This document shows positions 54 through 25,446 of a stretch of 64,000 nucleotides of DNA, piece by piece (position 1 is the stretch's first letter; each line of letters begins with the position of its first letter). The notes below the pieces were generated by a model. It saw nothing but the letters and a program-made list of their open reading frames with translations, made no database searches and was not told the origin of the DNA. Origin of the DNA: an uncultured virus (IMG/VR IMGVR_UViG_3300027804_000061) (taxonomy: Duplodnaviria > Heunggongvirae > Uroviricota > Caudoviricetes); IMG/VR virus record IMGVR_UViG_3300027804_000061; one strand, written 5' to 3'. A program made the translations under genes and the position numbers.

Positions 54-968
54 TCATTTTTCCTCCAAAACGGGCATCAAATTAAGCAGCGCTACCAGCT
101 CCAGCGTGCGGCGTTCCGGACTGATGGTGCGCAGCCACTCTCCCATGTCCTTATATCCTTCCGGAGCGCGCACGATTTGTCCTTTTCCAATGTCATGTCT
201 GCGGGACAGCGCAATCAGTTCTCCCGCGTTGTCATTTTGTGCAATGACGTAGACGGCAGGAATGTGCCTAATGTGCTTCATCCATTCAGGACGCCATGCC
301 ATGCTGGAATTGTTGCCGCTAAATGGACAAATGGTAGGAAATCCATGCTGTGTCAGCAGCATAGTGTCAATCTCTCCTTCGTCAATCAGGACAAAGGGGA
401 TATCCATACGCGCGGCAGCGCTGTTAAACACCACGTTGTTGACGCCTCCCTTTTCAGAGATGTATTTGGCATACGGTTTTTCTTGTTGCTTAAAACCAAT
501 CTCTCGCACCGGGTCAATGCGGTATTTAACGCCGTACAGCTTGCCGTCTACAAAACAAGGGATGGCATAGCGATGATATTTTTGATGATATCCAAGCCGG
601 TATTTTTGAATGGTGCGCAGGGAAAGACCGCGATTGACAAAAAAAGATTCCCGGTTATGCAGATCTTTTTCCAGCTGTTCCACAAGCCCTTCGGCAATAA
701 CCGGTTCTCTGTTTTCGTACGCTTTTGTGTAGCGTCTGCGCTCCACAATTTTTTCTTGTGGAGTATCAATCTTTGCCCACGCTCCACAAAATCGGCACCA
801 TACATGAGGAGGACTTTTTCGTTCAGAAAAATCAATCACCATCCGGTCCCCAAAAGTCTTCCCGTCGTTCGGGCACTGCGCGTGAAACTCCTCCCCCGCT
901 CTTCTCAGGTGCCTCCACTCGGTCCACTGGCGCGGGTTGAGCGGGGGGCCGATTTGGCAGTTCAGCAT
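54..968 (-). CDS. DNA primase (zinc finger + TOPRIM)
   Basis: N-terminal zinc-finger-like CPNDG...WCRFCG; TOPRIM motifs EGEIDT and QNDNAG; lies next to the helicase. Start uncertain (968 or 1004). Confidence 0.85.
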   Translation of the reverse strand: MLNCQIGPPLNPRQWTEWRHLRRAGEEFHAQCPNDGKTFGDRMVIDFSERKSPPHVWCRFCGAWAKIDTPQEKIVERRRYTKAYENREPVIAEGLVEQLEKDLHNRESFFVNRGLSLRTIQKYRLGYHQKYHRYAIPCFVDGKLYGVKYRIDPVREIGFKQQEKPYAKYISEKGGVNNVVFNSAAARMDIPFVLIDEGEIDTMLLTQHGFPTICPFSGNNSSMAWRPEWMKHIRHIPAVYVIAQNDNAGELIALSRRHDIGKGQIVRAPEGYKDMGEWLRTISPERRTLELVALLNLMPVLEEK

Positions 969-2361: not shown

Positions 2362-2846
2362 TTGAACATGTCCTCCAAATCCTCAGCGTCTATACCGCCG
2401 TCAGGCGATGCGTCGTGCGGTGTTTCTTCCTGAGGCGGTCTGTAGCCTGTAGCAGCTTCCACCGCTTTGACAATGGGAAGCTGCTGTGCTGCAGTTTCCA
2501 CGCTTGCTCGAAAGACATCCCACCCCATCAGCTTGATGGCAGTGGATACTTTTAATCGAAGATCCCGGTTGCGCAAAAAATGGGGCACGTATGCGCGCCC
2601 CAGTCTTTGTTCCAGCCATGTCACAGCTTCTTCTGGAATTTCTATTTTTGGACCGGGCTTGTGGTCCAGCTTTCCAAACCCGCGCAGCCAGTATTCCACG
2701 CCGTTGCGCACGTATCCGGAACGAGACACGCGAAAATCGCCATCTTCATCCCGGTATCGCGGCCCTTCGGATTTGGAGATTTTGATCTCTCTCGAGTCGT
2801 TGGTTTCGTCGCAATAATCTCCGAAATCAATGGTGATTTTTTTCAC
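2358..2846 (-). CDS. hypothetical protein (possible replication initiator or helicase loader)
   Basis: 162-aa ORF overlapping the helicase start by 4 nt; function guessed from position only. Confidence 0.6.
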   Translation of the reverse strand: MKKITIDFGDYCDETNDSREIKISKSEGPRYRDEDGDFRVSRSGYVRNGVEYWLRGFGKLDHKPGPKIEIPEEAVTWLEQRLGRAYVPHFLRNRDLRLKVSTAIKLMGWDVFRASVETAAQQLPIVKAVEAATGYRPPQEETPHDASPDGGIDAEDLEDMFK

Positions 2847-7665: not shown

Positions 7666-8031
7666 TTACAGCGCTTCCTGTTCCATCTGTTTCAACTTAA
7701 TGGATCGCTTGTATTCAAACGATCCCATTCCTATGCGCTTTTGCATAGCGCGGTTCAGATGCGATGCGCTGCTGAATCCCGCTTCCAGTGCAACGCGCTC
7801 AACGCTGTATCTGTTGTTGCGGATCATCATCATGGCATCGCGGATACGCAGATCCTGAATATGTTTAACCGGAGTGGTTTGATACAGCTTTGCAAACCAG
7901 ATGTTCAGAGACGCTTGAGACACATCCAGTTCCTGAATCTTGGCAACAATGTCTCCCTTTTGAATGGTTCGATAGTTGTTGTCGCACCAGATTCTTAGTT
8001 GCGTTGCAGCTTCGATGAATTTTTGACTCAT
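7666..8031 (-). CDS. stand-alone AraC/XylS-family DNA-binding domain
   Basis: VSQASLNIWF...TP...RI..A...SVERVALEAGFSSASHLNRAMQKRIG matches the AraC double-HTH signature. Confidence 0.88.
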   Translation of the reverse strand: MSQKFIEAATQLRIWCDNNYRTIQKGDIVAKIQELDVSQASLNIWFAKLYQTTPVKHIQDLRIRDAMMMIRNNRYSVERVALEAGFSSASHLNRAMQKRIGMGSFEYKRSIKLKQMEQEAL

Positions 8032-8075
8032 TTTTAGACCTGAAAAATTTTTTGCCGGGTCTTACATGCCCTGCA

Positions 8076-8148
8076 AGCCTTCAGTGAGACTTGAACTCAC
8101 ACATTCGCATTACAAGAGCGAAATTCTAACCAGTTAAATCATGAAGGC
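8076..8148 (-). tRNA. tRNA-Thr (TGT)
   Basis: GCCTTCA/TGAAGGC acceptor, anticodon loop CTTGTAA, T-arm GTGAGTTCAAGTCTCAC. Confidence 0.85.
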
Positions 8149-8157
8149 CTGCATATT

Positions 8158-8427
8158 TTAGATGTTTTCATTCAAAGCATCAGAAACTTGTTTCCAGTCA
8201 ATGTCTTTGCTGGAAACTTTTACTCCGTCAGGAGTTTCCGGCTTGTTAAAACAGGAACGCATAATTTCCAACGCTGTTTTTTTTGCCAAAACGGGATTCC
8301 AAAAATAGTTAAACTTTTGATGTATTTTTACCTGCTGCATCAGGTACTGATACGCGTTTTCATCGTTGTGAATCCACAGCACAATGTTCCACGTGTTGTA
8401 ATTTTTGTATCCGTTGTATTCAGTCAT
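8158..8427 (-). CDS. conserved phage hypothetical protein
   Basis: YNGYKNYNTW...LWI.NDE motif, recurrent in small phage proteins. Confidence 0.7.
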   Translation of the reverse strand: MTEYNGYKNYNTWNIVLWIHNDENAYQYLMQQVKIHQKFNYFWNPVLAKKTALEIMRSCFNKPETPDGVKVSSKDIDWKQVSDALNENI

Positions 8428-11820: not shown

Positions 11821-12551
11821 TACTTGTTGTTCAGTGCAAGCGCCAGATTGACTTCTCCAATAATTTCAGGAGAGGACACACCCCAGACTGCCTGAGCGGC
11901 AGCAGCCGATCCAATCTTCTTGCTCAGGCTGGAAAACGCAAACGCTTCACGGCTGGTCAGCGTCGGTTTCTTGTTGCCCTCGCCGTACGAACGACGCACC
12001 AGATCGCCCAGGCCAAAGATTTCCCTGTTCAGCCCGTCCACAATCATGGGATTGGGCGTAGTTACCTTCAGGCGTGCCTCAAAGCGGTCCTGCAGCGCTT
12101 CCGGAAGCTTGCTGAATGGGGAATTGCTGGTAGCCACAATGCGAAGATTTGGATGCCGCTGCACAGTCTCACCGTTCATCAGCGTGATCACGGCGGATTC
12201 CTTGCTGTCCAGAATGCTGAGCAGAAAATCCAACACCGCGTCCGATGCACGTCCCATCTCGTTCAACACGAGCACGCCGCCTGCGCGAAACGCCGTCATG
12301 ATTGGGCCGTCCCGCCACACCCACGCACCGGATTCCGTCGGCACATACGTTCCCTGATATTCCTGCACGGAACTATCCGGATTGAACGTAATCTGATACA
12401 CGGAAATTTCTGCTCCGTCGCGGCTGGTCAGACCGGCATACGTCTTGCCCAGTCCGGGCGGCCCTTCGATAAACGTCGTAAATGCATTCTTTACGCACAT
12501 TTCAACCAGCGTCCACTGCTCGCTAGGCCCACTCCAGTTAACAGTTGTCAT
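11820..12551 (-). CDS. MoxR/CbbQ-family AAA+ ATPase
   Basis: GPPGLGKT, WRDGPI, VLNEMGRA, VATSN, ALQDRF. Confidence 0.92.
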   Translation of the reverse strand: MTTVNWSGPSEQWTLVEMCVKNAFTTFIEGPPGLGKTYAGLTSRDGAEISVYQITFNPDSSVQEYQGTYVPTESGAWVWRDGPIMTAFRAGGVLVLNEMGRASDAVLDFLLSILDSKESAVITLMNGETVQRHPNLRIVATSNSPFSKLPEALQDRFEARLKVTTPNPMIVDGLNREIFGLGDLVRRSYGEGNKKPTLTSREAFAFSSLSKKIGSAAAAQAVWGVSSPEIIGEVNLALALNNK

Positions 12552-12640
12552 CGTAAATTCTCCTTGTAGTTGGGAGGTGTAAACGTCCTCCCTCTGATCA
12601 TTCGGCCGTCAGGCCAAAAACACTAAAAATTTCCACGGTT

Positions 12641-13228
12641 TTACAAAGTTTCTGCAATGATTACAAAAACTTTTTCACGTTTAAACAAACCAAACACTTT
12701 TGCAAGTTCGATTCTTTCCAAATCGGAAAGATCTTGAAAGTTTCTGGGAATGGCAATGTCTATGCCTTCTCGATATACGTTTCGAAAACGATCTTCACAC
12801 GTGAGTTCATATGGAAGACGCAGCGCAACAGCACGAAGTTTTGCACGACCGGTCAGCTGCACGCGCGTGCCAAATTTCAGTCGAACAGGACATGCAGCAG
12901 CTCCGACATATGGAAGTTTTCCAGACGCCATTGTTCCGCTTCCTGAAATTCCGTCTCCTGAATCCGGCGTATATGCCGTAATCAGCATGTTTGAGCTATA
13001 AAAAGAGAGAGTTTTCTCGTCGTAAAGCGTCAACAACGGAAGAAAAACTGCCGCTTCTGAACTCGATAAAACATTTTTTCCAGGAAAGAAAAAGAGTGTT
13101 GTGAGAAGCAAGCAGATCGTCAGGATTTTCAAGAATGCGAAACGGAAGCGCATCCATAGACTGAGAAATCTGGCTGATTTGTCTGCGGCAGATTGGCGCG
13201 CAGGGGGAGTAAAGAGATTTGATTTCAT
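12641..13228 (-). CDS. membrane-anchored 3D-domain cell-wall protein (MltA-like)
   Basis: Hydrophobic N-terminal segment; ITAY...TMASG...AACP...FGTRV...CEDR...IDIA. Start uncertain. Confidence 0.75.
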   Translation of the reverse strand: MKSNLFTPPARQSAADKSARFLSLWMRFRFAFLKILTICLLLTTLFFFPGKNVLSSSEAAVFLPLLTLYDEKTLSFYSSNMLITAYTPDSGDGISGSGTMASGKLPYVGAAACPVRLKFGTRVQLTGRAKLRAVALRLPYELTCEDRFRNVYREGIDIAIPRNFQDLSDLERIELAKVFGLFKREKVFVIIAETL

Positions 13229-13362
13229 ACTCTCGAGTAGATCGAGAGTACACAAACAGCAGAACAGTAAGTCCGTTTTGTTCTGCGGTTGACCATTGAA
13301 CCAAATGCTCCTGCATGAACTGTTATTGTAAAAGAATGTTTGTTTTGAAAACAAAATCACTC

Positions 13363-13390
13363 TTGCAAAATTTTTAGTTCTTTATACAAT
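13363..13390 (+). promoter_or_regulatory. sigma70-like promoter
   Basis: TTGCAA-16 bp-TACAAT in AT-rich intergenic DNA. Confidence 0.5.
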
Positions 13391-13438
13391 AAGCATTGTC
13401 GGTTTTGATTGTGTGGCCCTCCTCCCAGACGTCAGTCG

Positions 13439-13477
13439 AAAACCCCGTACACGGCATGTGCGGGGTTTTCATTTTTT
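13439..13477. terminator. terminator hairpin, possibly bidirectional
   Basis: AAAACCCCG...CGGGGTTTT followed by a T run; lies at the end of the minus-strand ORF stopping at 13476. Confidence 0.7.
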
Positions 13478-13865
13478 ATCGATATACACCCATCTTCAAA
13501 TTTGGAAAGCCGGGATGTGTAATCCAGCCGTCTTCAGAAATTTGAATGGATGGGTTTTCCAGATTTGCCGATGCCGGATTGAAATACGCATGAATGTAAA
13601 TCCATGCATGATCAATTTTGGCGTAAATTACAAACACGCATTTGTCCGCACCGGAAGCCATCTGTGCAGCAAGTTCTGTTTTGTTGATGCGCTTTTTGGG
13701 CTTTGCCTTGATTTGCTCCGCATACATGCTTTTGCGGAGATGGTCTAGAAACTCCCGTCTTGGAATTCGTTTGTCTCCCAGCCATCCCTGGTCATACAGT
13801 TTGGATGCAAGATCAAACAAATCCTTGATGACGTCCGTGGGGGCAAGGCTATCTCCCCACGGCAT
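13476..13865 (-). CDS. hypothetical protein
   Basis: 129-aa ORF with GGAGG RBS. Confidence 0.65.
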   Translation of the reverse strand: MPWGDSLAPTDVIKDLFDLASKLYDQGWLGDKRIPRREFLDHLRKSMYAEQIKAKPKKRINKTELAAQMASGADKCVFVIYAKIDHAWIYIHAYFNPASANLENPSIQISEDGWITHPGFPNLKMGVYR

Positions 13866-14277
13866 GAATTTCCTCCGCGTTCATGTGCTTTACAAGCTCT
13901 TGCGTTATGGTGTCTACCAGAATGACGCGAATGGGCTTTCCCAGCGACACCATGGTTTTGATCATGTGTGTTGTTCCGGGGCTGTTGCCGTCATAAAACA
14001 CCACTGCTACGTCAGCATACGCCGCCATGCGTTCATTGCGCTTCATGCCGGCGCTTTTGCCTTCTTCATCCCATTTGGCCGGCATCAGGGAAATGCGATG
14101 CCCTTTGTTGATGGCATATGCACGGCCCAGCGTATCCGGCCCCTGCGCAGCTCCACTGATGATTTCAATCTGATGCGTCTGTGCTTTTGCAGACAAAAGC
14201 TTGTCCAATGATTGTTCAAGCTTTTCGTAATTGCAGAACCTTCTGCTTCCTGCGACGATTACTCGAAAAATATCCAT
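13849..14277 (-). CDS. SLOG-superfamily protein (DUF2493/YspA-like)
   Basis: VIVAGSR, IISGAAQGPD, PAKW...GKSAG..RN..MA, FYDG.SPGT.HM. Confidence 0.88.
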   Translation of the reverse strand: MDIFRVIVAGSRRFCNYEKLEQSLDKLLSAKAQTHQIEIISGAAQGPDTLGRAYAINKGHRISLMPAKWDEEGKSAGMKRNERMAAYADVAVVFYDGNSPGTTHMIKTMVSLGKPIRVILVDTITQELVKHMNAEEIHAVGR

Positions 14278-14279
14278 AG

Positions 14280-14489
14280 TTACATTTTTTCTACAGACAC
14301 ATGGCCTGGACCAAGTAAATATGTGATGCCGTGACGATCTTTGACATACACATATTCTTTGATGGGACTGTTGACGTCGTGAATGACAAACGGCTGCTGG
14401 TCAGCGTTGATGCCGGATTGCTTCAGGCATGTGACGTCTGACACAACAAACCGATCGCCTGTTTTGAGAGTGGAAAGAATGTTAGTCAT
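14280..14489 (-). CDS. hypothetical protein
   Basis: Short ORF within the operon. Confidence 0.5.
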   Translation of the reverse strand: MTNILSTLKTGDRFVVSDVTCLKQSGINADQQPFVIHDVNSPIKEYVYVKDRHGITYLLGPGHVSVEKM

Positions 14490-14751
14490 TGCAGTTATGC
14501 GTCCAGCTGTTTTCGTTGGCGGCAATAAGATACCATCCGTTCAGATTTACGCAAATGCGATTCAGCTGCGCGTGGCTTTTGTTGTCAAAACGCTCCGGAA
14601 TGCGGCACTGAAACAGCTCTGTGCGAATGCCGCCAGCAAATGAACACTCTCGTCCATACATCTGACTGCGCGTGAGCACAGACGACAGAATGGCTGCACA
14701 AAGACAGAGACAAAACAAAATAAACACGTGGATTTTGTTGATTTGATTCAT
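14482..14751 (-). CDS. small membrane or secreted protein
   Basis: N-terminal hydrophobic helix; 89 aa. Confidence 0.5.
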   Translation of the reverse strand: MNQINKIHVFILFCLCLCAAILSSVLTRSQMYGRECSFAGGIRTELFQCRIPERFDNKSHAQLNRICVNLNGWYLIAANENSWTHNCND

Positions 14752-14796
14752 AAAGAATCCGGATTTTGATATGCAGATCCGGAAAACTGCAACACA

Positions 14797-15249
14797 CTAG
14801 AACGGCATTTCGGCATCAGACTGCACAGGCGTCTTGACGTCAGCGTTCTGAACAGATTCCTGTTCCTGCCACGGAGCAAGCTCAAACACCATAGGCTGCG
14901 CATTAGGCGCATTGCGATCCACAACAGTCCACTTGCGATCGCCTTCTTTCCGCGCCATAAACGGATTCAGCCACATTGAACCACTCTTATCGGTGTTGAT
15001 GCTGCCGTATACAAGCGCCTTAACCTTGTGGCCGGTGATTTCGCCCTGTGCGCTCACAATTGGCTGCCACGCAAACCGATCAAGCGTTCCCATGGGAAGG
15101 CTCATGGCTGCCGTCAGCTTGGGCTTGAAGCTGACCTTGCCGGACTCGTCGGTCAACGCATCCCACGAACGCACGCGGTACACTTCGCGCTTGCCGTCCT
15201 TGGTGGTAATGTCGTTTTTGTACAGGGTAACGGAAAATTTGTTGCTCAT
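14797..15249 (-). CDS. putative ssDNA-binding protein with SSB-type C-terminal tail
   Basis: Beta-rich 150-aa protein ending DAEMPF. Confidence 0.55.
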   Translation of the reverse strand: MSNKFSVTLYKNDITTKDGKREVYRVRSWDALTDESGKVSFKPKLTAAMSLPMGTLDRFAWQPIVSAQGEITGHKVKALVYGSINTDKSGSMWLNPFMARKEGDRKWTVVDRNAPNAQPMVFELAPWQEQESVQNADVKTPVQSDAEMPF

Positions 15250-15329
15250 GATATTTGTAATTTACTGAATGCAAAAATTAAGCCGGATTGCTTTGTATGC
15301 AACCCGGCCTCTCATACGCGCGTCAGCGT

Positions 15330-15500
15330 TTATTCCCAGCGAAGATCTTCCGGGTCGTGCGAACCCCAGAACAAAAGCTGGTTGCGATTGCCGTCGATCT
15401 TGCGAATGATCTGGCGAGAAAGCTCTTCCATGTCGGACCAGTCATCCAGACTGTCCTCGATCACGATGCGTCGCGGCTTGTCATCTTCTTCGTAGTTCAT
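15330..15500 (-). CDS. hypothetical protein (56 aa)
   Basis: ATG with GGAG RBS; translates MNYEEDDKPRR...; below the ORF-track size cutoff. Confidence 0.6.
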   Translation of the reverse strand: MNYEEDDKPRRIVIEDSLDDWSDMEELSRQIIRKIDGNRNQLLFWGSHDPEDLRWE

Positions 15501-15509
15501 AAGTTTCTC

Positions 15510-15743
15510 CTAAAGGTTGTTGTCGCTTCGCTTCCACCCAAACAACTCACGGGTGTAGGTCACATGGTCAAAGTTGGCCAGATTGCTGACGTCGATCTGA
15601 GACGCATGCTCGTCTTCTTTGTAGAAGGAAAGCAAGCGTTTGTAATCGTCAAACAATCCGGCAAACGACACAATCATTGGTGCCTTGTCTGATTTTCGAT
15701 ACACGCGCAATTCGATGGCGTGCACATCATTTTTGCTGGTCAT
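15510..15743 (-). CDS. hypothetical protein
   Basis: 77-aa ORF. Confidence 0.6.
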   Translation of the reverse strand: MTSKNDVHAIELRVYRKSDKAPMIVSFAGLFDDYKRLLSFYKEDEHASQIDVSNLANFDHVTYTRELFGWKRSDNNL

Positions 15744-15763
15744 AAATAAAAAACGGGCCCTTT

Positions 15764-15985
15764 TCAGGACCCGTTGATCTGACTGTCAAAATGCTGTATC
15801 AGCAACGTCAGCTCGTAGTGATCTGCGTTGCTGACCTCCATGAGCGCCTGCGTTTTGGCTTTTTCATAGCGCTCTTTGCAAAGCGGCAGCCAAAACAAAA
15901 ACATTATGCCGTCTTCCTGAATCAATCGTTTTGCGGCTTTGTATTCCGAAAAGTAATTGATCAACGCCTTCACACTGTCGTTCAT
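15764..15985 (-). CDS. hypothetical protein
   Basis: ATG with AGGAG RBS; its end overlaps a terminator-like hairpin. Confidence 0.6.
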   Translation of the reverse strand: MNDSVKALINYFSEYKAAKRLIQEDGIMFLFWLPLCKERYEKAKTQALMEVSNADHYELTLLIQHFDSQINGS

Positions 15986-16168
15986 ACGTTTTTTTCTCCT
16001 GAATTTATGAAATTCTTCTATGCGGGCGTCAGCCCTGTATGAAAACGAATGCGCCATGGGGCAGAAGATCAGACGTTGTCGTCTTCAAATCTACCTTGCG
16101 GCGCTACTGTTGTCATCTGCGAGGAAAGCAGTCTTTTGTTTCCAAAAGCCAACGCTGCTTTCATTACC

Positions 16169-16233
16169 GGTCTCGTCAGTGTGCGCATAACGCACAGGCC
16201 ATCGGGGACATTGCTGCCCCCTAGGTTTCGACC
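16169..16233 (-). ncRNA. type II hammerhead ribozyme 1 (GCC triplet variant)
   Basis: GGTC-GAAA-stem III-GCC-stem I-CTGACGA-GACC. Confidence 0.8.
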
Positions 16234-16238
16234 TTTTG

Positions 16239-16532
16239 CTAAAACGGAATGTCTTCAGACTTTACGTCTTTTGTGCGTTTTTCCCACCACGCAGCTTTGA
16301 CTTCTTTGTATTGATTTGCGAGCCACTGTGCAGTTTCACAGTGATTGGATTCTCCGGCAAGCATTTCTGCCTGCGCGGATTCTATGACCAGATCATCGAT
16401 GCTGCCATCGAGATCTTCGAGGAAATACTCGTGCTCCATGCTGAGCAGGACTTCCTGGCCGGTGACGAGACTGTGCTTGATCAGCACGATCTCTTCCATG
16501 ATGACGTCTGCAAGTATGTGAAACTTATACAT
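16239..16532 (-). CDS. acidic protein ending in DIPF
   Basis: Acidic ORF with C-terminus KSEDIPF. Confidence 0.6.
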   Translation of the reverse strand: MYKFHILADVIMEEIVLIKHSLVTGQEVLLSMEHEYFLEDLDGSIDDLVIESAQAEMLAGESNHCETAQWLANQYKEVKAAWWEKRTKDVKSEDIPF

Positions 16533-16731
16533 AATTTTTAAGTCCGGTTTTTGGGAAGATGCCGGCAAACTTAGAGTTTTAGGATGACTCATAAACCGCA
16601 AAACGGGTTAAAACGAAAAAAGCGCAACCTTGTCAGGGAATCAAACCCTGATAAATCATCAGACAAGGCAATCTCTTTTCTACCGTAAGCAATCAAAACA
16701 AGGATTTCTCCTCATACGGCCGTCAGGCCGC

Positions 16732-16796
16732 GGTCTCATCAGTGCACGCATTACGTGCAGGCCATTGGGAGTATTGCTACTCCCTAGGTTTCGACC
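16732..16796 (-). ncRNA. type II hammerhead ribozyme 2 (GCC triplet variant)
   Basis: GGTCGAAACCTAGGGAGTAGCAATACTCCCAATGGCC-TGCACGTAATGCGTGCA-CTGATGA-GACC. Confidence 0.82.
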
Positions 16797-17035
16797 TACC
16801 AAACTGCAACCGGCGTGGTTGCAAAACTCATCCCGTTGTACAGCAGTTTCTCAGCGTGCTCTACACCGCTTGCGCTGCTGATGTAGTAAGACGTTACTGC
16901 GCCGTCCCACGAGTCGTTGGTGACGACCTCAATCATGCCCAATTCTTTGGCCTGCTGATCGCTCAGCAAGCCAACATCAGCCATCACGGTTTTGCCTGCG
17001 GCGATCTGGTTCTTCATCATTTCGAACATGCGCAC
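16796..17035 (-). CDS. hypothetical protein
   Basis: About 78-aa ORF; its stop codon overlaps hammerhead 2. Confidence 0.65.
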   Translation of the reverse strand: MRMFEMMKNQIAAGKTVMADVGLLSDQQAKELGMIEVVTNDSWDGAVTSYYISSASGVEHAEKLLYNGMSFATTPVAVW

Positions 17036-17104
17036 CTCTTAAAACGGAATCGGGAGATATGAAAAACGCACTACTAGTAGTAATGCGTTTTTCTCATACA
17101 GCCG

Positions 17105-17452
17105 TCAGGCTCCCATGACTTCCCAAACTGAGAATTCAAAGGTTGCCTGCGCGATCTCAGCATCGCTGTACTCAGCGACGCCTTCGCGCCGAGGGAGCCC
17201 TCGAACGCTCATCACCACGAGCTTGTCGCCTGCGCCGAGCTTCACAAACGGCGCCTTCGCGGGCACTTCGACCATCAGGCCAAAGCGCTTGCGCATGGCA
17301 TCGATTGTCGACACGTGGCTGGGATTCAACGCCGGAATGACGCCGGTTGCCACAAGCTCTCGAACCGTCTCGACAGTCACTACCTTTCGGGTGACAGTCA
17401 CATCTCCGAGAAACATGCCGTCTGCCACGGCAAATCCAAAGTAAACGCTCAC
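17105..17452 (-). CDS. AcrIII-1/DUF1874-like protein (putative cyclic-oligoadenylate ring nuclease)
   Basis: 115 aa from a GTG with AGGAGG RBS; pattern VY.....M...SHVST...FG..V...VKL..GDKLVV...R.EG......EI...F resembles the STIV B116/SIRV1 gp29/YddF family. Confidence 0.6.
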   Translation of the reverse strand: MSVYFGFAVADGMFLGDVTVTRKVVTVETVRELVATGVIPALNPSHVSTIDAMRKRFGLMVEVPAKAPFVKLGAGDKLVVMSVRGLPRREGVAEYSDAEIAQATFEFSVWEVMGA

Positions 17453-17480
17453 TTTTCCTCCTTGAACTACAAGACTATCT

Positions 17481-17545
17481 GGTCTCATCAGTGTGCGCCT
17501 AACGCACAGGCCATCGGGAGTGCTGTCACTCCCTAGGTTTCGACC
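17481..17545 (-). ncRNA. type II hammerhead ribozyme 3 (GCC triplet variant)
   Basis: Same core as copies 1 and 2, with compensatory stem changes. Confidence 0.82.
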
Positions 17546-17704
17546 TTACTTTGCCATTGCATCGATCTTGCGACCGATGATGGCGCGGAATCCCTCACTG
17601 TCGCGAAGAACTCCGCTGGCGACGGCGCGGCTGAAGTCGCTCAGCACCTTGCTAAGCTCCTCAACCGTGACTGCGTTTTCTACTCGCTTAATATATTCGC
17701 TCAC
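17546..17704 (-). CDS. hypothetical protein (52 aa)
   Basis: GTG start with AGGAG RBS; lies between hammerheads 4 and 3. Confidence 0.6.
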   Translation of the reverse strand: MSEYIKRVENAVTVEELSKVLSDFSRAVASGVLRDSEGFRAIIGRKIDAMAK

Positions 17705-17729
17705 TTGTCTCCTGTTTTGCAATCAAAAC

Positions 17730-17779
17730 GGTCTCATCAGCACACGCATTACGTGTGTATACCCGAAGGCATTTCGACC
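17730..17779 (-). ncRNA. type II hammerhead ribozyme 4 (AUA triplet)
   Basis: GGTCGAAATGCC-TTCG-GGTATA-CACACGTAATGCGTGTG-CTGATGA-GACC; canonical core. Confidence 0.9.
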
Positions 17780-18090
17780 TGAATATAGACAAAAGGGCGG
17801 CAATTCTCAAATCCGCCCTTAAACAATATGCACAGGAACAACAATTTCATTTGTTCCAAAATTTACAACGCATCAACACGCTGTTTGTATTTGCAACTAC
17901 AAACACGTTTGATTTTCGCCTTTGCTTTTGGGTGCAAAGGAACCGCATCCCACACAACACCGACTCACGACCTTGCAAAGCAATCTACGATAGATTGAGT
18001 CACTGCTTTGCAACCGGGTTTCTAGGGCAACCCTGAACGCCCGAGCTCCTGCTCAGACCAAAAACGGACTCCAAAACGGCAAGACAAACT

Positions 18091-18152
18091 GGTCTCATCA
18101 GTGCACGCCTCACGTGCAGATCCCCCTGCATCACACACAGGGGATTTCGACC
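18091..18152 (-). ncRNA. type II hammerhead ribozyme 5 (AUC triplet)
   Basis: GGTCGAAATCCCCTG...CAGGGGGATC-TGCACGTGAGGCGTGCA-CTGATGA-GACC; canonical core. Confidence 0.9.
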
Positions 18153-18376
18153 TAGAGTTCCTCCTTGACAAGCAGCATTTCATCGAACGTGATGAAATGG
18201 GCGTCGCGCTGCGAATCGATTGCGCGCTTCAGATCTACGAGCAGCCACGGCTTTCCGGACTGCATTGCAATCTGCTGGTGCGTCATCTCCCACGGAATAC
18301 CCGTAGGAGAAGACGGCTCAACTCCGGTGTCATACCACCGGATGAGCTCCGTCAGAAACTTCTCGTGCTTGTTCAT
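18152..18376 (-). CDS. hypothetical protein
   Basis: AAGGAG RBS; stop codon abuts hammerhead 5. Confidence 0.65.
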   Translation of the reverse strand: MNKHEKFLTELIRWYDTGVEPSSPTGIPWEMTHQQIAMQSGKPWLLVDLKRAIDSQRDAHFITFDEMLLVKEEL

Positions 18377-18506
18377 AACACTCCTTGTGTGAGCAACAAA
18401 ACTGCTGCTCACAATATCGTAAGAGGTTAACGCCTCTTCCTCATACACGCGTCAGCGCTTATGCACGCCAAAACGTAATAGGGAAGAGGCAATCTCTATC
18501 CGCGCG

Positions 18507-18701
18507 TCAGCGTCTGCGCTTTTGAATAACGGTAATCAAAAGCTTGTCCAACGCGCGCTCCGTTTTGCACTCAAAACCGGCAAAACGGATGACTGCTTCT
18601 ACTTCTTCAACTTCTACAAGAGAAGAGAGAGCAAGAGAAGCCTCGCCTTCAATCTCCGCTACTTCGATAGCAGAGATCAAATGAGCGAACTGCTTGTTCA
18701 T
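18507..18701 (-). CDS. hypothetical protein
   Basis: AAGGAGGT RBS; 64 aa. Confidence 0.65.
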   Translation of the reverse strand: MNKQFAHLISAIEVAEIEGEASLALSSLVEVEEVEAVIRFAGFECKTERALDKLLITVIQKRRR

Positions 18702-18805
18702 AACACCTCCTTGTGTTATGTCGTTGTCTCTGCAACACCGCTATTTTGGCAGACAAAGCGGTGTTGCAGAGCCGAAAAGAGCCGAAAAGAGCCGAAAGGG
18801 TATCG

Positions 18806-19255
18806 CTACTTGCGAATCGGCACCCATTCCAGCTCTTGACGGTCGAAGTTGCCCTTGTGACCACTGTTGATCACGAGAGCGCGCATGGAGAGGTAGATGG
18901 CCTTCTCCTGCCATGCGCGTGCTTCGTCGGCGAATCGCTGCTGACGTTTTGTCAGCGAAACGCCGGCCCGGATGCGCTTCAAGATGTCCTGCTGCGTGGA
19001 CTCTCGAAGCACGGAACCGTCCATCTCGTTCCACGCGCGCATTTTGCCCTGGTAGGCAAACGCGATCATGGAACTGGAGGGACGGAATCCGTAGGCGCGC
19101 TCGAAGTCGTAGCACGCCTGCAAAACTGCCTCGGGGTCCATCGACTTGTAGTGCAGCAAGTCGTCCTTGCTGACCGGCAAATCGATGAACCGGCCCTTCT
19201 TCACAAGGGCGACGGTGTGGCCCGGCGGGCAGCCACTGAAAGCAGAGTTGCTCAT
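18806..19255 (-). CDS. hypothetical protein
   Basis: About 149-aa ORF downstream of two TGAC hairpin motifs. Confidence 0.65.
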   Translation of the reverse strand: MSNSAFSGCPPGHTVALVKKGRFIDLPVSKDDLLHYKSMDPEAVLQACYDFERAYGFRPSSSMIAFAYQGKMRAWNEMDGSVLRESTQQDILKRIRAGVSLTKRQQRFADEARAWQEKAIYLSMRALVINSGHKGNFDRQELEWVPIRK

Positions 19256-19535
19256 GTGCGGAAAACCCCCTTGAAAATAATAAGCGCCCCTCAATGGAGC
19301 GCTTATCTCATACGCGCGTCAGCGCGTCTTGGCTTCCTGCCTGCCCATGTCTGGGAAGCAGGAAGATCCTCATAGGCGCGTCAGCGCCCGATCACTCTAG
19401 ACTCAGGACGCTGAGCGCCTTTTTGACGCGGCAGCGCATTCCCATCGTGCGTATAGAAGCGCAAAGCGAGAAGGAATAACATGCGAAGGCGGACAAACTG
19501 CGGGTCCGCAATGCGACTGCTCAACAGTCGCTGAC

Positions 19536-19568
19536 AAATAAAAAAGAGGGCGGTCATAGACCACCCTC
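19536..19568 (-). terminator. terminator downstream of the RNA polymerase gene
   Basis: GAGGGTGGTC-TAT-GACCGCCCTC-TTTTTTATTT. Confidence 0.8.
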
Positions 19569-19613
19569 CACTGAGGCAGGAGATGATTCCAGTCACCTCC
19601 TGCCTACTACACC

Positions 19614-22418
19614 CTACATTACGTCCGTTTCGACGACGCCGTCATCGGCGCTGGCGTAGTCGAAGTTGCCGTCGTCCGCCCACTCCGGCTCCGGAGTGTC
19701 TCCGTCCAGCGGAATCTCAAAGAACTCGGCCATCACCTTCCCCGTGAAGGTGATTTCCACGCTCTTGATTCCGGGAACGCTGGCGAGTTTGACGTGGTGC
19801 ATTCCCGTCGGAACGACCACGCCAACCATGCCATGCGTCTGTCCGTCGCCCACGCGAACGGACAGCGGATACTTGGGCGTTTCCGCGCTCGTATCGACGA
19901 CTTCAACAGCCGTATACACGGTGTCGTCGTCCATATACTTGGCGCGGAACTCCAGGCCGCCCATGATCTTGCCGATCATGCCGGCCCCTTCGGCGCGCTT
20001 CTCGGCGATGCTGTCCTTGCGGGCAATCAGCATCCGCGCGACCACTTCCGGAAGTGCAAACTTCATTGCAAATCCGGCGTTGTCGCCGCGAGAGAACGCA
20101 GCCCACAGCGCGCTGGCGGCCGATTCCAGCCACGCCGTGTTCTCGTTCTCTTTGCCGAGACTCATTTCGACCGCCTTATCGCGCCACACTTTTCGATAGG
20201 CTTCGAAAAGCTCAGCGCGCAGCATGTCCGCCATGTCCAACGTGACCTTCTTGGCTTTAAGATCGTTGGCAATGTCGCCCATGCGCTTGTACAGGCGGTC
20301 GATCGCCTTGTTCGCCCACTGAAAGCCCTCTCCCGGGATCTCCTCGATCCATCCGGCAAAGAACTTGTTGTCCAGCGTGGACAACTGGATGAGTGGCACC
20401 TCATCCTCGTGGGCGCGAATGAACGCCGCCAGCGGCATCAACTCCTCGTCAGGAGTGTCCGCGTGGCCGAAGAACCTGCTGGGCATGATCGGCTTGCCCG
20501 GTTCCACGACCAGCGGAACGCTGGTGTCGGCGCCAAAGAAGCGAAGAGTTTCCTCTTCTGCCTGCCGTTCCGTCCCTTCAAAGAGGGTGAACGGCTTAAT
20601 GTTCTTCCTCTTCTGAAGCTGGCGGTAGGCATGCATCGAAAGAGTAATGCCATACTCTTCCTGCGCCTCCTTGGACAGTTTGCGGACAAGCTGCATGTCC
20701 GCAGTGGCAGCTTTCTTAACGCTGTCCACCGCTTTCTGCAGCTCCACGCGCAGCACGCCGATCTTCTCATCGGCGTGGGCGGCAGCATGCGCGACCATAC
20801 GCATGATTACCACCCACTTCTGAATCACGTAATCAATCAGGCCGATGCCAGCGGCCATTGATTGCGCAATCATCTTGCTGCGCGACGTCGGGGGTTTCGC
20901 CTTTTGCCGCAGCTTCTCTTCGCTGATCGGCAGCCCCTCGACTGTCTTCCGCATCTCGACTACGACCTCGTCAGGTCGTGCGATGGCAAAGGCATCGCCA
21001 TCAAAGTCGAGCGCCGCACGATTCATCGTGCGCTCGTTGACCCACGCTTCGTACCACCGTACACGCGGGTCAGCGTGCACGATGATTGCAACCATTTCCG
21101 TCCAGTGAGCGAACGGATACCTGATTGCGATGGTATCCACGCCGTCTCGGCCTGTCTTTCCAAACAGGTGCTGGAACACCTTTGGATTGACAGCAACGAC
21201 GTTGTCGCCCAATTCTCGGTTGCAGACCGCGCGGAATCTCCACGCGTAGATTCCCAGACCTGCCAGGATCTGGTAACCTGCGGTGGCAACCCACTCGGTC
21301 AGCGCAGCAACCATCATCTTGCTGCGCATCAGCCGCGTGTCGCCGATGGCGACGCACACAGCTGCAAACAGCTTGATGATGTCGAACTGCTGGAGGTTTC
21401 CCTCCTCGTCCCGAAGCGACGTGCCACGGCCGGCCAGCCAGCGCACGTCGCTGAGACGCTCTCGCAGTTCGCCCAGCTTCGCCGAAACCAGGTTGTGCGC
21501 CTTATTCACAACCTCGCTTGACGCCCACTGGGTCACCTGTGGACCGATCAGGATGGGGCCGGCCAGGTCCTCGTCACCATTGACGATGCCAAACCCCATC
21601 ATGATCTCGTGCACGCCGTCTGGAAGCACAACGCCCTTATTGTGCTTGAGCGTGCCTCTGGGCATTACCAGGTCCACCCCGTCCGGCAGCCGAGCCGGGA
21701 TCAGAGTGCCTTTGCCCAGAATCCACTTGGACGCGTCCTCGTTGTCCAAGTGGAGAATCGCGCGGAACTGCGGGTCGTTCTCAAACACGACCTTATGCTG
21801 CGCAGCCCACGTGCGATCCACGAGCCCCTGGCCGTCGCCAATGCGGGTAAAGCGCGGATCGTCATCCTCGCATACCAGCACTCGGGCGGTTACATGAAAG
21901 TAACCGCCACGAAGGGGCGTATGCAGCGCTCCCGGGCGCACGGCGTCGCCCGCGTCCGGGAACATCGCCTCCATGCGCTTGGCCCAGTGAAAGTCCACCA
22001 CTGGGAGCACTGCACTGTTGCTCTTTGCGGCCTGCGTCATGTACCGCATCCAGCCGCATTTGCGCCCATCCGAGGGGCGGACCGGCCAGTCCACCCCTTG
22101 GATTTCGATGCCCGACCCTCGAATGATATCGAGGGCAAGAGTTGAGATCTCTTCCTCCTCGGTATCAATCAGATCGGGGTCCAACTGCACGCCCGCGATG
22201 AGAGCGCCTTCTTCGCGGGCAATGCATGAGGCGTAGTCCCGGCGCACCCAGGAGTAACTGCTCGCCTTGAGCGGTCCTGGTTGCGCATTGGACATCCCCA
22301 TGCGTTTGAGAGCTGACCAGTTGGTCATCAGCTCCCCGTTGCGTCCCTTTACCACCGGGACAACCACGAACACGTCGTGGATTGTCAAGGTGGCAATTGG
22401 GATTTCGAATACTTTCAC
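19614..22418 (-). CDS. single-subunit DPBB DNA-dependent RNA polymerase (non-virion; YonO/P23-45 gp64-like)
   Basis: GDGQG, PQFRA...GKGTL, IRYP (21114-21122), ALDFDGD (DFDGD at 20994-21008), IG.I and Q.AVD..K motifs, in the order seen in RdRP-like/YonO RNAPs; AGGAGGT RBS. Confidence 0.85.
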   Translation of the reverse strand: MKVFEIPIATLTIHDVFVVVPVVKGRNGELMTNWSALKRMGMSNAQPGPLKASSYSWVRRDYASCIAREEGALIAGVQLDPDLIDTEEEEISTLALDIIRGSGIEIQGVDWPVRPSDGRKCGWMRYMTQAAKSNSAVLPVVDFHWAKRMEAMFPDAGDAVRPGALHTPLRGGYFHVTARVLVCEDDDPRFTRIGDGQGLVDRTWAAQHKVVFENDPQFRAILHLDNEDASKWILGKGTLIPARLPDGVDLVMPRGTLKHNKGVVLPDGVHEIMMGFGIVNGDEDLAGPILIGPQVTQWASSEVVNKAHNLVSAKLGELRERLSDVRWLAGRGTSLRDEEGNLQQFDIIKLFAAVCVAIGDTRLMRSKMMVAALTEWVATAGYQILAGLGIYAWRFRAVCNRELGDNVVAVNPKVFQHLFGKTGRDGVDTIAIRYPFAHWTEMVAIIVHADPRVRWYEAWVNERTMNRAALDFDGDAFAIARPDEVVVEMRKTVEGLPISEEKLRQKAKPPTSRSKMIAQSMAAGIGLIDYVIQKWVVIMRMVAHAAAHADEKIGVLRVELQKAVDSVKKAATADMQLVRKLSKEAQEEYGITLSMHAYRQLQKRKNIKPFTLFEGTERQAEEETLRFFGADTSVPLVVEPGKPIMPSRFFGHADTPDEELMPLAAFIRAHEDEVPLIQLSTLDNKFFAGWIEEIPGEGFQWANKAIDRLYKRMGDIANDLKAKKVTLDMADMLRAELFEAYRKVWRDKAVEMSLGKENENTAWLESAASALWAAFSRGDNAGFAMKFALPEVVARMLIARKDSIAEKRAEGAGMIGKIMGGLEFRAKYMDDDTVYTAVEVVDTSAETPKYPLSVRVGDGQTHGMVGVVVPTGMHHVKLASVPGIKSVEITFTGKVMAEFFEIPLDGDTPEPEWADDGNFDYASADDGVVETDVM

Positions 22419-22433
22419 TGGTTTCCGGACCTC

Positions 22434-22967
22434 CTAAGCCGGCCTCCATTCAAGAATTCGTGCCACCACGAACGTGCGGTCTTCATTGCGCAGGTGGCAG
22501 CGCGCAACGAGACCGAGCTCAGACCAGGACAGAGGGGTGACGACCCGCTCCGTCACCTCGCCCCGAATTCGCCCGTCATAGCGAATCCAGAGCTTGGCTC
22601 TGGTCTTCATGGCCTCGCTCGCGGCCATGGTGAACTCAACGTTGTCCGTGTGGACTACCTGCGAGCGCAGGTTGACGGGGCATTCCGTGCCGTACACGGC
22701 AAAGCCCTGCGCAGCGATCCACACCGCAACCTTTCCCGGGTTGGCAGCCCGTTCAAAGTCGCGGCGCGTACCGTCGCGCATCCACACGCGGGTGCCTGCC
22801 GCCGGGAACTCCACGGCCAGCACCCCAGCAGCCGTGAGTTCCTGCCACGTTTTGCGGTTCTCTTCCTGAACCGGCGTGAACAGTGGCTTGTTCACGCTTT
22901 GGATTGCCCTCAGCTTGGACGGTAGAACAACCGTCACTGGGCACCTCCTGTTAACTACGGTTTTCAT
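22434..22967 (-). CDS. hypothetical protein
   Basis: 177-aa ORF directly upstream of the RNAP gene; start may be the GTG at 22943. Confidence 0.65.
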   Translation of the reverse strand: MKTVVNRRCPVTVVLPSKLRAIQSVNKPLFTPVQEENRKTWQELTAAGVLAVEFPAAGTRVWMRDGTRRDFERAANPGKVAVWIAAQGFAVYGTECPVNLRSQVVHTDNVEFTMAASEAMKTRAKLWIRYDGRIRGEVTERVVTPLSWSELGLVARCHLRNEDRTFVVARILEWRPA

Positions 22968-23187
22968 TGGTAGCCACGCGTCGGGGCCGACCTGCAGGTT
23001 CCGCTCCTGCCCATGTTGTTTGCGCTTGTTTTGCCAGCAAGACGCAGCGCATCAACGACTCGTCAGCTTTGATGCGCATAAAAATAAAAAAATAAAAGAA
23101 AATAAAAAAACAGGGTCGGCTTTGCGGCCGCCCTGTTTAGTTCGTCGGGGTTTTGTTATCGCAGGTGATCCCCTTCCTGCGTGCCGG

Positions 23188-23535
23188 CTAGTTCAAACGA
23201 GCAGAAAACTGCCTTCTGAACCCTTCGATTGAGAGGTTTCCCTCTTCGATCGGGGAGCCGACAATGAGGTAAACCTCATCGCCCTCCCCGCCGTTTTCGA
23301 TTTCCACTCCCTTGGCCGATTGGCCAAGGGAGTAGAACACAAACGCCTGGTGCCACGCCGGTCGCGTAAGCACCTTCGAGTTTGTCCAGACCACCAAAAG
23401 GTGGCCGTTGACAATGGCTGTTTCTGTGAGCTCCGCGAGCTCACTGGCCAGGGCGATGCTGTCGCCGCTGGCCGAAAACGTGCGCTGTTCTCCGGTGTCT
23501 TTGTTCCGGAACAGCGCAAAGGTTGTTGTGGGCAT
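23188..23535 (-). CDS. hypothetical protein
   Basis: 115 aa; AAGGAGG RBS. Confidence 0.75.
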   Translation of the reverse strand: MPTTTFALFRNKDTGEQRTFSASGDSIALASELAELTETAIVNGHLLVVWTNSKVLTRPAWHQAFVFYSLGQSAKGVEIENGGEGDEVYLIVGSPIEEGNLSIEGFRRQFSARLN

Positions 23536-23715
23536 TTGCCCTCCTTTGCTCCTGTGAGCCTAACTGCTTGGCACTGTATCCGTAAACACGGAGCTCAGCC
23601 AACTCAATCAATAAAATAAAAAATAAATAAAAATAAAAAAGCAGGGTCAGCCATACAGCTGCCCTGCCAAGTCGATGGGGTTTTGATGTCGCAGACCCCT
23701 AACTGCGGACGGAGA

Positions 23716-24303
23716 CTAGTCGTTGACTCTGTCTCCGTCGTAGTCGTGTCCTCCCCACCTGAAGTACTGCCAGCCCTCCGGCCGGCTGGCCAGCTCGGCT
23801 TTGTAGGCGGCCTCCCGCCGCTCTTCGGCCGCCGCCTCCTCGGCCGCCTTGGCAGCGGCTTCCGCCGCCTCCAAGGCCACCTCGGCGTCGTGGATGGCCT
23901 CTAGGGCCTTCCACTCCGCCATGAGGGTTTCATAATCTGTCTGTCGGCGCCGTGCCGACTCCAGATTATTCTTGGGGATGTAATAATCCCCCTTTCCCCA
24001 CAGACCGTCGAAACGGTCTGTGAGTTTCTTCCGGACGGCGTTGGCCGCCTGGCGGTATTCCCGGGCTTTGTCCCGGGACCCCTGCCCTCGCTGGATCAGA
24101 GCGCGCTCGCGCTCCTCCAGCGCCTCCAGGCGGCTGGCTTCCGCCTCTATCGCCTCCTCCTGGGCCAACAGAGGCGCGAACGCCTCTTCTGCCTGCAGGA
24201 GGATGCGGCGTAGGGCCGCGACCTCCTCCATCACCGCCGAAGCGGTGACCGGGAAACGAACGGGGGCCGACGAAGACTTCTTGTGATGGATCGTGATGGC
24301 CAT
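23716..24303 (-). CDS. hypothetical coiled-coil protein
   Basis: AAGGAGG RBS; rich in Ala, Glu and Arg. Confidence 0.75.
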   Translation of the reverse strand: MAITIHHKKSSSAPVRFPVTASAVMEEVAALRRILLQAEEAFAPLLAQEEAIEAEASRLEALEERERALIQRGQGSRDKAREYRQAANAVRKKLTDRFDGLWGKGDYYIPKNNLESARRRQTDYETLMAEWKALEAIHDAEVALEAAEAAAKAAEEAAAEERREAAYKAELASRPEGWQYFRWGGHDYDGDRVND

Positions 24304-24581
24304 GATGGCCTCCTTTTGCCGCACAACGCTCCACAACACTCTTCTACCACTGCGTCAACCGGAGCGCCTGTCTGAACACAGATCAGGTCTTATCGAGATG
24401 GTTGCGCTGACAGTGGCAGAGTCTGTATTGCTTCTGCGCTGTACGGCTATAGTCATTCGGGCCCTTATCTACATGCGCGTGCATGCAGCATTGGCCCTGC
24501 AAAAGACATTAAAAATAAAAAAATAAAAAAGAAAAAAATAAAAAACGCGGACACCTTGCTCAGGGTAGTCCGCGTTTGCCG

Positions 24582-25301: not shown

Positions 25302-25446
25302 GACATCCCCGTTCCAAGGGGCATAAAAATAAAAAAATAAAAAAGAAGAAAATAAAAAAGGTCAGCAGGTTTGTTGTTTCCTGCTGACCTTCGCCGACAG
25401 TGAGGCTTGCTTTTCCCTCACTGCCGGCAACGCGTCTGGTCGGCGG

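Follow-up and report, generated by a model that had tools for sequence, protein, structure and literature searches.

The early promoters of phage N4, which are read by a phage-encoded enzyme, the N4 virion RNA polymerase, are inverted repeats with a conserved GC-rich centre, in which the loop and a required loop-closing G:C pair are fixed, the other stem bases are free but paired, and the distance to a downstream element is constant (PMC4496689, in part). In Thermus phage P23-45, AT-rich promoters serve the virion polymerase and GC-rich promoters serve gp64, the non-virion RNA polymerase, for which only a loose GC-rich motif is known (PMC10770324); in the seven gp64 promoters that have been mapped, the core reads tc-TAG(A/G)GGC or TATAGGC (PMC10770324 supplement file 6). 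The promoter sequence of YonO is stated as still to be determined (PMC5467207, in part). The non-virion polymerases of AR9 and phiKZ are phage two-barrel enzymes that read promoters without a sigma factor, and the AR9 enzyme reads the template strand as single-stranded DNA, according to a partial source. These enzymes are multisubunit, and they read short linear promoter motifs, in which no covarying hairpin is known. Here we describe a repeated mini-hairpin with an adjoining purine-rich box in 64,000 nucleotides (nt) of DNA, hereafter the window, from an uncultured freshwater tailed phage (IMG/VR record IMGVR_UViG_3300027804_000061). The window carries part of the genome and belongs to a contig of 76,987 bases, and the motif occurs downstream of a 934-aa open reading frame (ORF) that is predicted to encode a single-subunit two-barrel RNA polymerase.

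The motif has the architecture stem-C-TGMC-G-stem, followed 6 nt on by an A(T/G)RRR box. The strict pattern CTGACGNNNNNATRRR has 10 matches in the window against 0.16 expected, a number reached in none of 100 shuffles. Nine of these are on the minus strand (copies A to H and J in Table 1). The tenth, at 51587 on the plus strand, is probably due to chance, since it lies within a giant ORF and scores only 15.5 bits with a covariance model of the motif. This model (R1) was applied, unfiltered, to both strands of the window and of two metagenome loci, L001 and L002, whose polymerases are 90% and 48% identical to that of the window; the covariation described below thus rests on three genomes. R1 recovers its 28 training copies, an ungapped alignment of 10 copies from the window, 9 from L001 and 9 from L002, at 20.4-36 bits. 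An ATGAT variant (copy I) misses the strict pattern yet scores 25.8 bits, and the scan adds one further window copy, at 393-426 on the minus strand (19.0 bits, loop TGCC, box ATGGA; copy K). These two bring the window total to 11. Below the real copies the model gives the 15.5-bit match in the giant ORF and otherwise at most 12 bits. The nine copies listed in the initial annotation are all present on the minus strand, although its coordinate 18494 should read 18495 and copies J and K had been overlooked.

L001 has nine copies of the TGAC form against 0.43 expected. In L002 the TGAC form is absent and nine copies have the loop TGCC with the boxes AGAGG, ATAGG or ATGAG. Together the three genomes hold 29 copies, and every one is on the coding strand, which is that of the polymerase gene, and downstream of this gene. 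In the model scan of both strands, neither the 37-kb structural module nor the region that precedes the polymerase gene has a copy. The restriction of full copies to the region past the polymerase gene, first noticed in the window, therefore holds for all 29 copies, and a covariance-model scan of relatives, which had been suggested as a check, returned nine copies from each with the same placement.

The stem covariation is real. Six columns are invariant among the 28 aligned copies (C9, T10, G11, C13, G14 and A20), and at position 12, the base that separates G11 from C13, the window and L001 have A where L002 has C. Because the invariant positions include loop bases as well as A20, the spacing from loop to box is constant in 28 of 28 copies, as the proposed 6-nt distance from TGAC to the box requires. 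Pair 7-16 is CG in 15 copies, GC in 12 and AU in one, and pair 8-15 is GC in 15, CG in 8, AU in 3 and GU and UG in one each; neither is ever unpaired. Pairing extends to pair 6-17 in 26 of 28 copies, to pair 5-18 in 18 and to pair 4-19 in 19. From these counts the core is a 4-bp stem on a 4-nt loop, often lengthened to 5-6 bp, so that the stems drawn in the initial annotation do pair, but only four base pairs of them are firm. Over the six-pair stem 87.5% of cells are paired, compared with 61.3% in column shuffles and 30-52% in slid registers. The covariation score is 0.635 against 0.187 in shuffles, and the observed value was reached in 0 of 500; this bears out the observation that the stem sequence varies while pairing is kept. 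When copies C and D of the window are compared with their counterparts in L001, pair 8-15 shows a compensatory double change twice, once G-C to C-G and once G-C to A-T, which indicates that pairing is under selection on a short time scale.

The mean folding energy is -4.6 kcal/mol as DNA and -7.7 kcal/mol as RNA. With DNA parameters the means for the sense and antisense strands are -4.6 and -4.7 kcal/mol, a difference of 0.13. By RNA parameters the sense strand is favoured in 15 copies and the antisense strand in 13; by DNA parameters the numbers are 3 and 17. Core-stem wobble amounts to three G-T pairs on the sense strand and two A-C cells, which are G-T on the antisense strand.

All three genomes share one order at the end of the polymerase gene: a strong terminator-like hairpin, 150-250 nt of spacer, two tandem motifs at a distance of 62-63 nt, and a conserved gene. 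Further copies precede genes or gene groups, among them pairs and one triplet with spacings of 55-62 nt. The distance from box to start codon is 13-102 nt in 15 copies and about 185-200 nt in two. In three copies (L001 8870, L001 10088 and L002 17178) the box itself is the Shine-Dalgarno sequence, 13-16 nt before the start codon; in most of the others the start codon is 32-102 nt past the box. The TGA of the loop serves as the stop codon of three ORFs. A significantly stable fold (z < -1.5) is present in the 50 nt past the box in 16 of the 29 copies, but in only 5 of the 11 from the window, so that the second hairpin initially attributed to most copies is a majority feature of the whole set and not of the window. 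This second hairpin often begins at the 3' edge of the box, and seven of the 29 copies directly precede terminator-like hairpins with U tracts. In the spacer before the first full motif there are also hairpin copies without a box, at 19422-19439 (minus strand) in the window and 6281-6296 in L001, with the sequences GCGC-TGCC-GCGT and GCGC-TGAC-GCGC. The same spacer contains the 16-mer GTCCGCCTTCGCRTGT, one copy per genome, kept although the spacer is otherwise divergent; it may act as a promoter or as an operator.

In the region upstream of the polymerase gene the motif gives way to a T-rich repeat that follows GC hairpins. The window has 13 matches to the pattern TTTTTATTTT, with 0.57 expected, 12 of them in the minus-strand interval listed in Table 1, and the same repeat is found upstream of the polymerase gene in L001 and L002. 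Genes in this region are preceded by six long T-rich tracts (TTTTTTATTTT...TTTTTAATG), every one of them behind a GC hairpin; the tracts look like either a second, AT-rich signal class as in P23-45 or extended terminators.

Table 1. Motif copies and associated features (window coordinates unless a relative is named).
Feature	Coordinates	Strand	Remarks
Copy A	19369..19389	-	GGGCGC-TGAC-GCGCCT + ATGAG; 32.3 bits; first of tandem pair, 62 nt apart, after polymerase-gene terminator
Copy B	19307..19327	-	ACGCGC-TGAC-GCGCGT + ATGAG; 33.5 bits; then terminator-like hairpin with T run, ribosome-binding site, ATG at 19255
Copy C	18495..18515	-	CGC-TGAC-GCG + ATAGA; 22.0 bits; loop TGA is stop codon of upstream ORF
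Copy D	18440..18460	-	GCGC-TGAC-GCGT (one G-T pair) + ATGAG; 32.8 bits; 55 nt after copy C
Copy E	17093..17113	-	AGCC-TGAC-GGCT + ATGAG; 29.4 bits; loop TGA is stop codon of upstream ORF; terminator-like hairpin next
Copy F	16711..16731	-	GCGGCC-TGAC-GGCCGT + ATGAG; 34.9 bits; abuts 3' end of hammerhead 16732-16796
Copy G	16017..16037	-	GGGC-TGAC-GCCC + ATAGA; 27.6 bits; ATG at 15985, 36 nt on
Copy H	15311..15331	-	CGC-TGAC-GCG + ATGAG; 29.6 bits; terminator-like hairpin next (15310-15280)
Copy I	12597..12617	-	GGCC-TGAC-GGCC + ATGAT; 25.8 bits; AAA-ATPase gene (start 12551) 50 nt on
Copy J	2389..2409	-	ATCGCC-TGAC-GGCGGT + ATAGA; 21.6 bits; in 3' end of upstream ORF; DnaB-like helicase gene (start 2361) 32 nt on
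Copy K (weakest)	403..423	-	GCGC-TGCC-GCGC + ATGGA; 19.0 bits, E 0.007
Intrinsic-terminator-like hairpin and T run	19545..19569	-	directly after polymerase gene, upstream of first motif pair
GTCCGCCTTCGCRTGT	19479-19494; L001 6265-6280; L002 10632-10647	- (window)	
Predicted single-subunit two-barrel RNA polymerase gene	19614..22418	-	934 aa; DFDGD at residues 471-475; presumed motif reader
WYL-domain protein gene	22434..22937	-	167 aa; PF13280, E 3.5e-8; directly upstream of polymerase gene
T-rich tracts	23081-26781; L001 1525-2598; L002 2519-5359	- (window)	
Type II hammerheads (stem II open)	16169-16233, 16732-16796, 17481-17545, 17730-17779, 18091-18152	-	between small genes
Giant ORF	37345-56523	+	6,392 aa; homologues 6,550-7,237 aa

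Searches with the presumed motif reader gave no sequence match in Pfam, PHROGs or PDB, and no similarity to known polymerases was found at the sequence level against PDB chains or cultured phages. It carries NRAALDFDGD, in which all of 11 homologues share D471, F472, D473, G474 and D475. When 1.84 billion representatives were searched exhaustively with a profile, only 28 proteins came up at E <= 0.001 (E, expected value). Two of 22 remote homologues touch the Pfam RNA-dependent RNA polymerase (RdRP) family PF05183, one above and one below the cut-off. The AlphaFold model of the protein is mediocre (predicted local distance difference test, pLDDT, 60.6); with this model Foldseek matched QDE-1 and RDR2 at E 2e-9 to 1e-6, the Thermus-phage polymerases P32 gp64 (2e-6), P74 gp62 (6e-6) and P23-45 gp96 (5.5e-5), and gp66 of the crAss-like phage phi14:2 (1e-4). 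Together these results support the identification as a two-barrel RNA polymerase, and the double-psi beta-barrel assignment made earlier from the DNA letters agrees with both the invariant DFDGD and the structural matches; the label non-virion given with it is a conjecture. A gene for a WYL-domain protein adjoins the polymerase gene upstream in 3 of 3 genomes. The WYL protein is 81% identical in L001 and 48% in L002, diverging in step with the polymerase; its model (pLDDT 50.3) is too poor for a fold search. From the gene order alone we infer that it is a candidate cofactor that may read the loop.

In its architecture the motif resembles the N4 promoters: it is an inverted repeat with the central C9, T10, G11, C13 and G14 invariant and with pairs 7-16 and 8-15 covarying, and it too is proposed to be read by a polymerase of the phage. 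The polymerases belong to different families, that of N4 being a T7-like single-subunit enzyme and the one encoded next to the motif a two-barrel enzyme like QDE-1 and gp64. The N4 promoters have a stem of 5-7 bp and a 3-nt loop, compared with 4-6 bp and 4 nt here, and there are three of them at one genome end as opposed to 11 copies over 19 kb. Template-strand recognition and a requirement for gyrase and single-stranded DNA-binding protein have been demonstrated for N4. The initial description as conceptually like N4 is therefore fair for the architecture and does not extend to the polymerase. P23-45 offers a second comparison. There, as here, an AT-rich repeat precedes the polymerase gene and a GC-rich motif follows it, and the Foldseek matches of the mediocre model suggest a related fold class for gp64. 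The L002 boxes C-TAGAGG, T-TAGAGG and T-TATAGG and the window box T-ATGAG can be set beside the gp64 core, a likeness that carries little information. None of the seven listed gp64 promoters has a hairpin within 30 nt, in contrast to the motif, and the gp64 start site about 16 nt past the T of the box does not suit the three copies whose box is the ribosome-binding site. The AR9 and phiKZ polymerases share the two-barrel fold and differ from the 934-aa enzyme in being multisubunit.

Based on distribution, grammar and analogy, we give about an even chance to the proposal that the motif is a structured promoter class read by the single-subunit two-barrel polymerase of this phage. It would drive the genes past the polymerase gene, some 18 small ORFs followed by the AAA-ATPase and helicase operons. 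The signal would have two parts: a mini-hairpin with the fixed loop T-G-A/C-C and a closing C-G pair, whose other stem bases need only pair, and a purine-rich box exactly 6 nt past the loop (T-ATGAG or ATAGA in the window, AGAGG or ATAGG in L002). The polymerase, possibly together with the WYL-domain protein of the adjacent gene, would melt the DNA, hold one strand as a hairpin and read the loop bases and the box, and RNA synthesis would start in the box or a few nt after it. Such a start would put the variable second hairpin at the 5' end of many transcripts, where it would act as a stabiliser before the ribosome-binding site. The action in DNA, the strand that forms the hairpin, the position of the start site and the role of the WYL protein are the inferred parts of this scheme. 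More tentatively, a polymerase of the QDE-1/YonO/gp64 class might recognise a DNA mini-hairpin and purine box in the manner of N4, by independent evolution, with the WYL protein perhaps reading the single-stranded loop.

Several observations argue for a promoter. All 29 copies are on the coding strand downstream of the polymerase gene and none is found elsewhere. In each of the three genomes a tandem pair follows the terminator of the polymerase gene, where a fresh start is needed. A different, T-rich repeat marks the genes upstream of the polymerase, which suggests two promoter classes as in P23-45, and the box resembles the mapped gp64 cores. The fixed loop and closing pair, the free but paired stem and the fixed distance match the N4 grammar, and the compensatory changes show selection for pairing. 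Loop and box vary between the lineages along with the polymerase and the WYL protein (both 48% identical between the window and L002). Hammerhead ribozymes, described below, cut the same RNA and share seven intergenic regions with the motif, which argues that the two have different jobs.

Other observations weigh against it. The only RNA data are low-depth Logan contigs from two freshwater metatranscriptome runs (depth about 2-6), which cover small shares of the region and carry no starts, ends or strand, so that no transcript 5' end is mapped. Weakly, one contig (15142-15364) spans copy H and another (17098-17362) stops at the T before the ATGAG of copy E, which would sit better with an RNA 3' end than with a start. 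With a firm stem of 4 bp and -4.6 kcal/mol as DNA, extrusion from the duplex is costly; moreover, wobble (3 against 2) and energies are so balanced that neither the strand nor the polymer of the hairpin can be picked from them. Covarying hairpins are the norm in RNA elements and rare in promoters. Terminator-like hairpins right behind seven copies are odd for a promoter, unless the polymerase ignores them. Where the box is the Shine-Dalgarno sequence, a start about 16 nt past the T, as in P23-45, would lose it, and the same geometry would place the start in or next to the loop of a terminator-like hairpin. By analogy with N4 the start would instead fall at about the G or A of ATGAG and keep the box-encoded ribosome-binding site in the RNA. 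The likeness of the box to the P23-45 promoters amounts to 6-7 low-information bases, in promoters that have no hairpin, and the sample is three genomes.

The strongest rival, possible although less probable, is that the hairpin and box form an RNA-level site in a long polycistronic transcript started elsewhere, for example near GTCCGCCTTCGCRTGT, and bound by a phage or host protein. It could be cut near U|A, giving 5' ends made of the purine box and second hairpin, or be bound as a stabiliser or translational signal. Lambda and P22 nut boxB and other RNA hairpin operators are small hairpins with a specific loop beside a linear box that act in RNA. Small covarying hairpins with a fixed loop are typical of protein binding in RNA, where the fold is stable (mean -7.7 kcal/mol), and both the covariation and the short stem are explained more naturally at this level. 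The box is Shine-Dalgarno-like and is used as such in three copies, and since the loop TGA ends three ORFs, the hairpin is carried on the transcript of the gene before it. The second hairpin often begins where the box ends on its 3' side, so that any 5' end generated at the box would be held in base pairs. The two RNA contigs just mentioned give weak support, the one by ending before the ATGAG of copy E and the other by bridging copy H like an uncut precursor, and the single-copy, conserved GTCCGCCTTCGCRTGT upstream of the first motif could be the true promoter. The structure-recognised promoter of the initial annotation remains the best-supported reading by distribution, grammar and analogy, with an RNA-level role, an alternative that this annotation also raised, as a serious rival.

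Against an RNA-level site, the tandem arrangement, with pairs and triplets spaced by 55-63 nt, is a usual one for promoters, and no Rfam family matches the motif at E <= 10. No hairpin-specific RNase was recognised among the ORFs scanned (20 with Pfam and 20 with PHROGs, overlapping sets). The restriction to the region past the polymerase gene and the two-class layout resembling that of P23-45 fit it only indirectly, whereas they are direct outcomes of a promoter. A second cutter would also be redundant, since hammerheads already process the same RNA 0-190 nt away in seven regions. A genome has one or two sites of the nut boxB type, which depend on an N-type protein; the window has 11 copies of the motif, and no protein of that type was identified.

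These hammerheads are defined by five window elements of the form GGTCGAAA...CTGAYGAGACC against 0 expected, interleaved with the motif, and there are more in L001 and L002. The hammerhead core is complete in them and is arranged as the type II permutation. Thirteen aligned elements have seven pairs in stem I, four with compensatory changes and none broken; those at 16233, 16796 and 17545 have C for U at position 16.1, before the cleavage site. Rfam reports none of them, even at E <= 10 on 501 bases. Type II hammerheads beside phage genes have been described and are believed to divide long transcripts into RNAs of gene length (PMC3088659, in part). A noncoding stretch of about 310 nt lies between two hammerheads at ~17780-18090 on the minus strand (~7990-8330 in L001). 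It has conserved blocks that the two genomes share and would be freed as a separate RNA. Like the motif, the hammerheads are repeated, strand-specific and located in the same intergenic spacers, with both elements in one region in seven cases. The motif differs: it consists of one hairpin, about 20 nt long, in which GAAA and A9 are missing, and A6 is missing as well from its TGCC loop. It therefore does not have the core CUGANGA...GAAA with three stems and an NUH site; the true hammerheads are separate elements. A reading of the motif as part of a ribozyme was likewise rejected.

Control of elongation in the nascent RNA, either antitermination of the nut/boxB kind or a hairpin stop or pause for the phage polymerase with restart, is improbable. 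U-tract hairpins within a few nt behind seven of the 29 copies and the copies directly after stop codons would suit it, but 22 copies have no terminator behind them, in three the start codon follows at once, and the motif hairpin itself has no U tract. As a terminator it would leave the genes behind it promoterless, because nothing else is conserved in the spacers. Known antitermination sites act once per operon and not before every gene. Still less credible is a DNA element outside transcription, such as a palindrome of the repetitive extragenic type, a priming signal or a one-strand nuclease or recombinase site. The motif is a strand-specific intergenic hairpin with a fixed loop, and all genes of the motif region are on one strand, which makes the replication and transcription strands inseparable here; but the other 37 kb of the window has no copy in either orientation, the purine box and constant placement before genes would be unexplained, and the ORFs scanned with Pfam and PHROGs included no recognised transposase or HUH nuclease. 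Both elongation control and a non-transcriptional role in DNA fit the placement of the motif poorly.

Other identities were rejected. The hairpin precedes T-A-K-R-R-R in 28 of 28 copies and not a U tract, and a terminator scan did not return the motif hairpins, so that it is not an intrinsic terminator. For a sigma-70 promoter, TGAC and TATGAG are 5 nt apart in place of 16-18 nt, and a consensus scan gave 7 sites against 8.7 expected, none at the motif. The spacing is also wrong for the elements of a sigma-54 promoter. A transcription-factor palindrome was rejected because the centre of the motif is fixed while its arms vary. In Rfam only three tRNAs passed the gathering score, and nothing relevant appeared at E <= 10 over 12000-20000.

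The minus strand, read from about 27 kb down to position 1, holds small early genes, the polymerase gene, the ~18 small ORFs, the three tRNAs and replication genes (AAA ATPase, ThyX and a DnaB-like helicase). The plus strand from about 27 kb is the 37-kb structural module, with an SPP1-type portal (PF05133, Pfam), a major head protein and tail proteins (PHROGs), and the giant ORF. The latter has GDDDGD at residue 1143 and an Atlas likeness of 0.87 (rank 15) to a cluster of the viral RdRP family, a weak lead that it may hold a virion RNA polymerase module; it has no Pfam match (searched as two overlapping pieces), no PDB sequence match and no polymerase-profile match. No T7-like polymerase domain was found by Pfam in the 20 ORFs scanned or the two giant-ORF pieces. 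Neither megablast nor tblastn with the polymerase found a close cultured phage, and the portal had matches at only 22-26% identity.

Further relatives were not recovered from the contig collections. The polymerase and its alignment had no matches in viral_contigs and none in genome_contigs, nor did the remote homologue P0013 match viral_contigs. A 17-mer of the motif matched five viral contigs (L003-L007), which we take as chance since the stem is paired in none. The tandem TGAC pattern had 0 matches in viral_contigs and matched three loci from metagenome-assembled genomes (L008-L010), with no covariance-model score at the match and no polymerase or WYL homologue. L010, a Bacteroidales contig, has at 8001-8206 an unrelated tandem repeat of about 63 nt containing CTCGTCTCCTGACGAGATATATGAG, likewise without a polymerase or WYL homologue nearby, which the pattern picked up by chance. 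The single locus matched by the tandem TGCC pattern (L011) was also rejected as chance.

Two other structures were seen among the small genes. In the leader after copy F (~16600-16650, minus strand; ~9455-9505 in L001) there is a hairpin resembling a tRNA T-arm (CAGGGTTTGATTCCCTG within a longer helix), which neither ARAGORN nor Rfam calls. At 18770-18800 on the minus strand, three direct repeats of TTTCGGCTCT stand just past a stop codon, followed by an 18-bp hairpin (CTCTGCAACACCGC...) and the next gene.

The observation of the motif is robust. In full-text literature searches no account of a two-barrel phage polymerase with a hairpin-containing promoter came up, and the initial annotation knew of none either. 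How single-subunit two-barrel RNA polymerases find their promoters is largely an open question, and some 29 natural variants with compensatory changes provide a ready test set for the reading of DNA shape by such an enzyme. If the motif acts in RNA, ribozymes and a protein-read hairpin would together shape the messages of this phage, a combination undescribed in the literature searched. If such an enzyme does read DNA shape, hairpin promoters would be no peculiarity of N4-like phages, and the motif and its polymerase would form a compact orthogonal promoter-polymerase pair of a new type.

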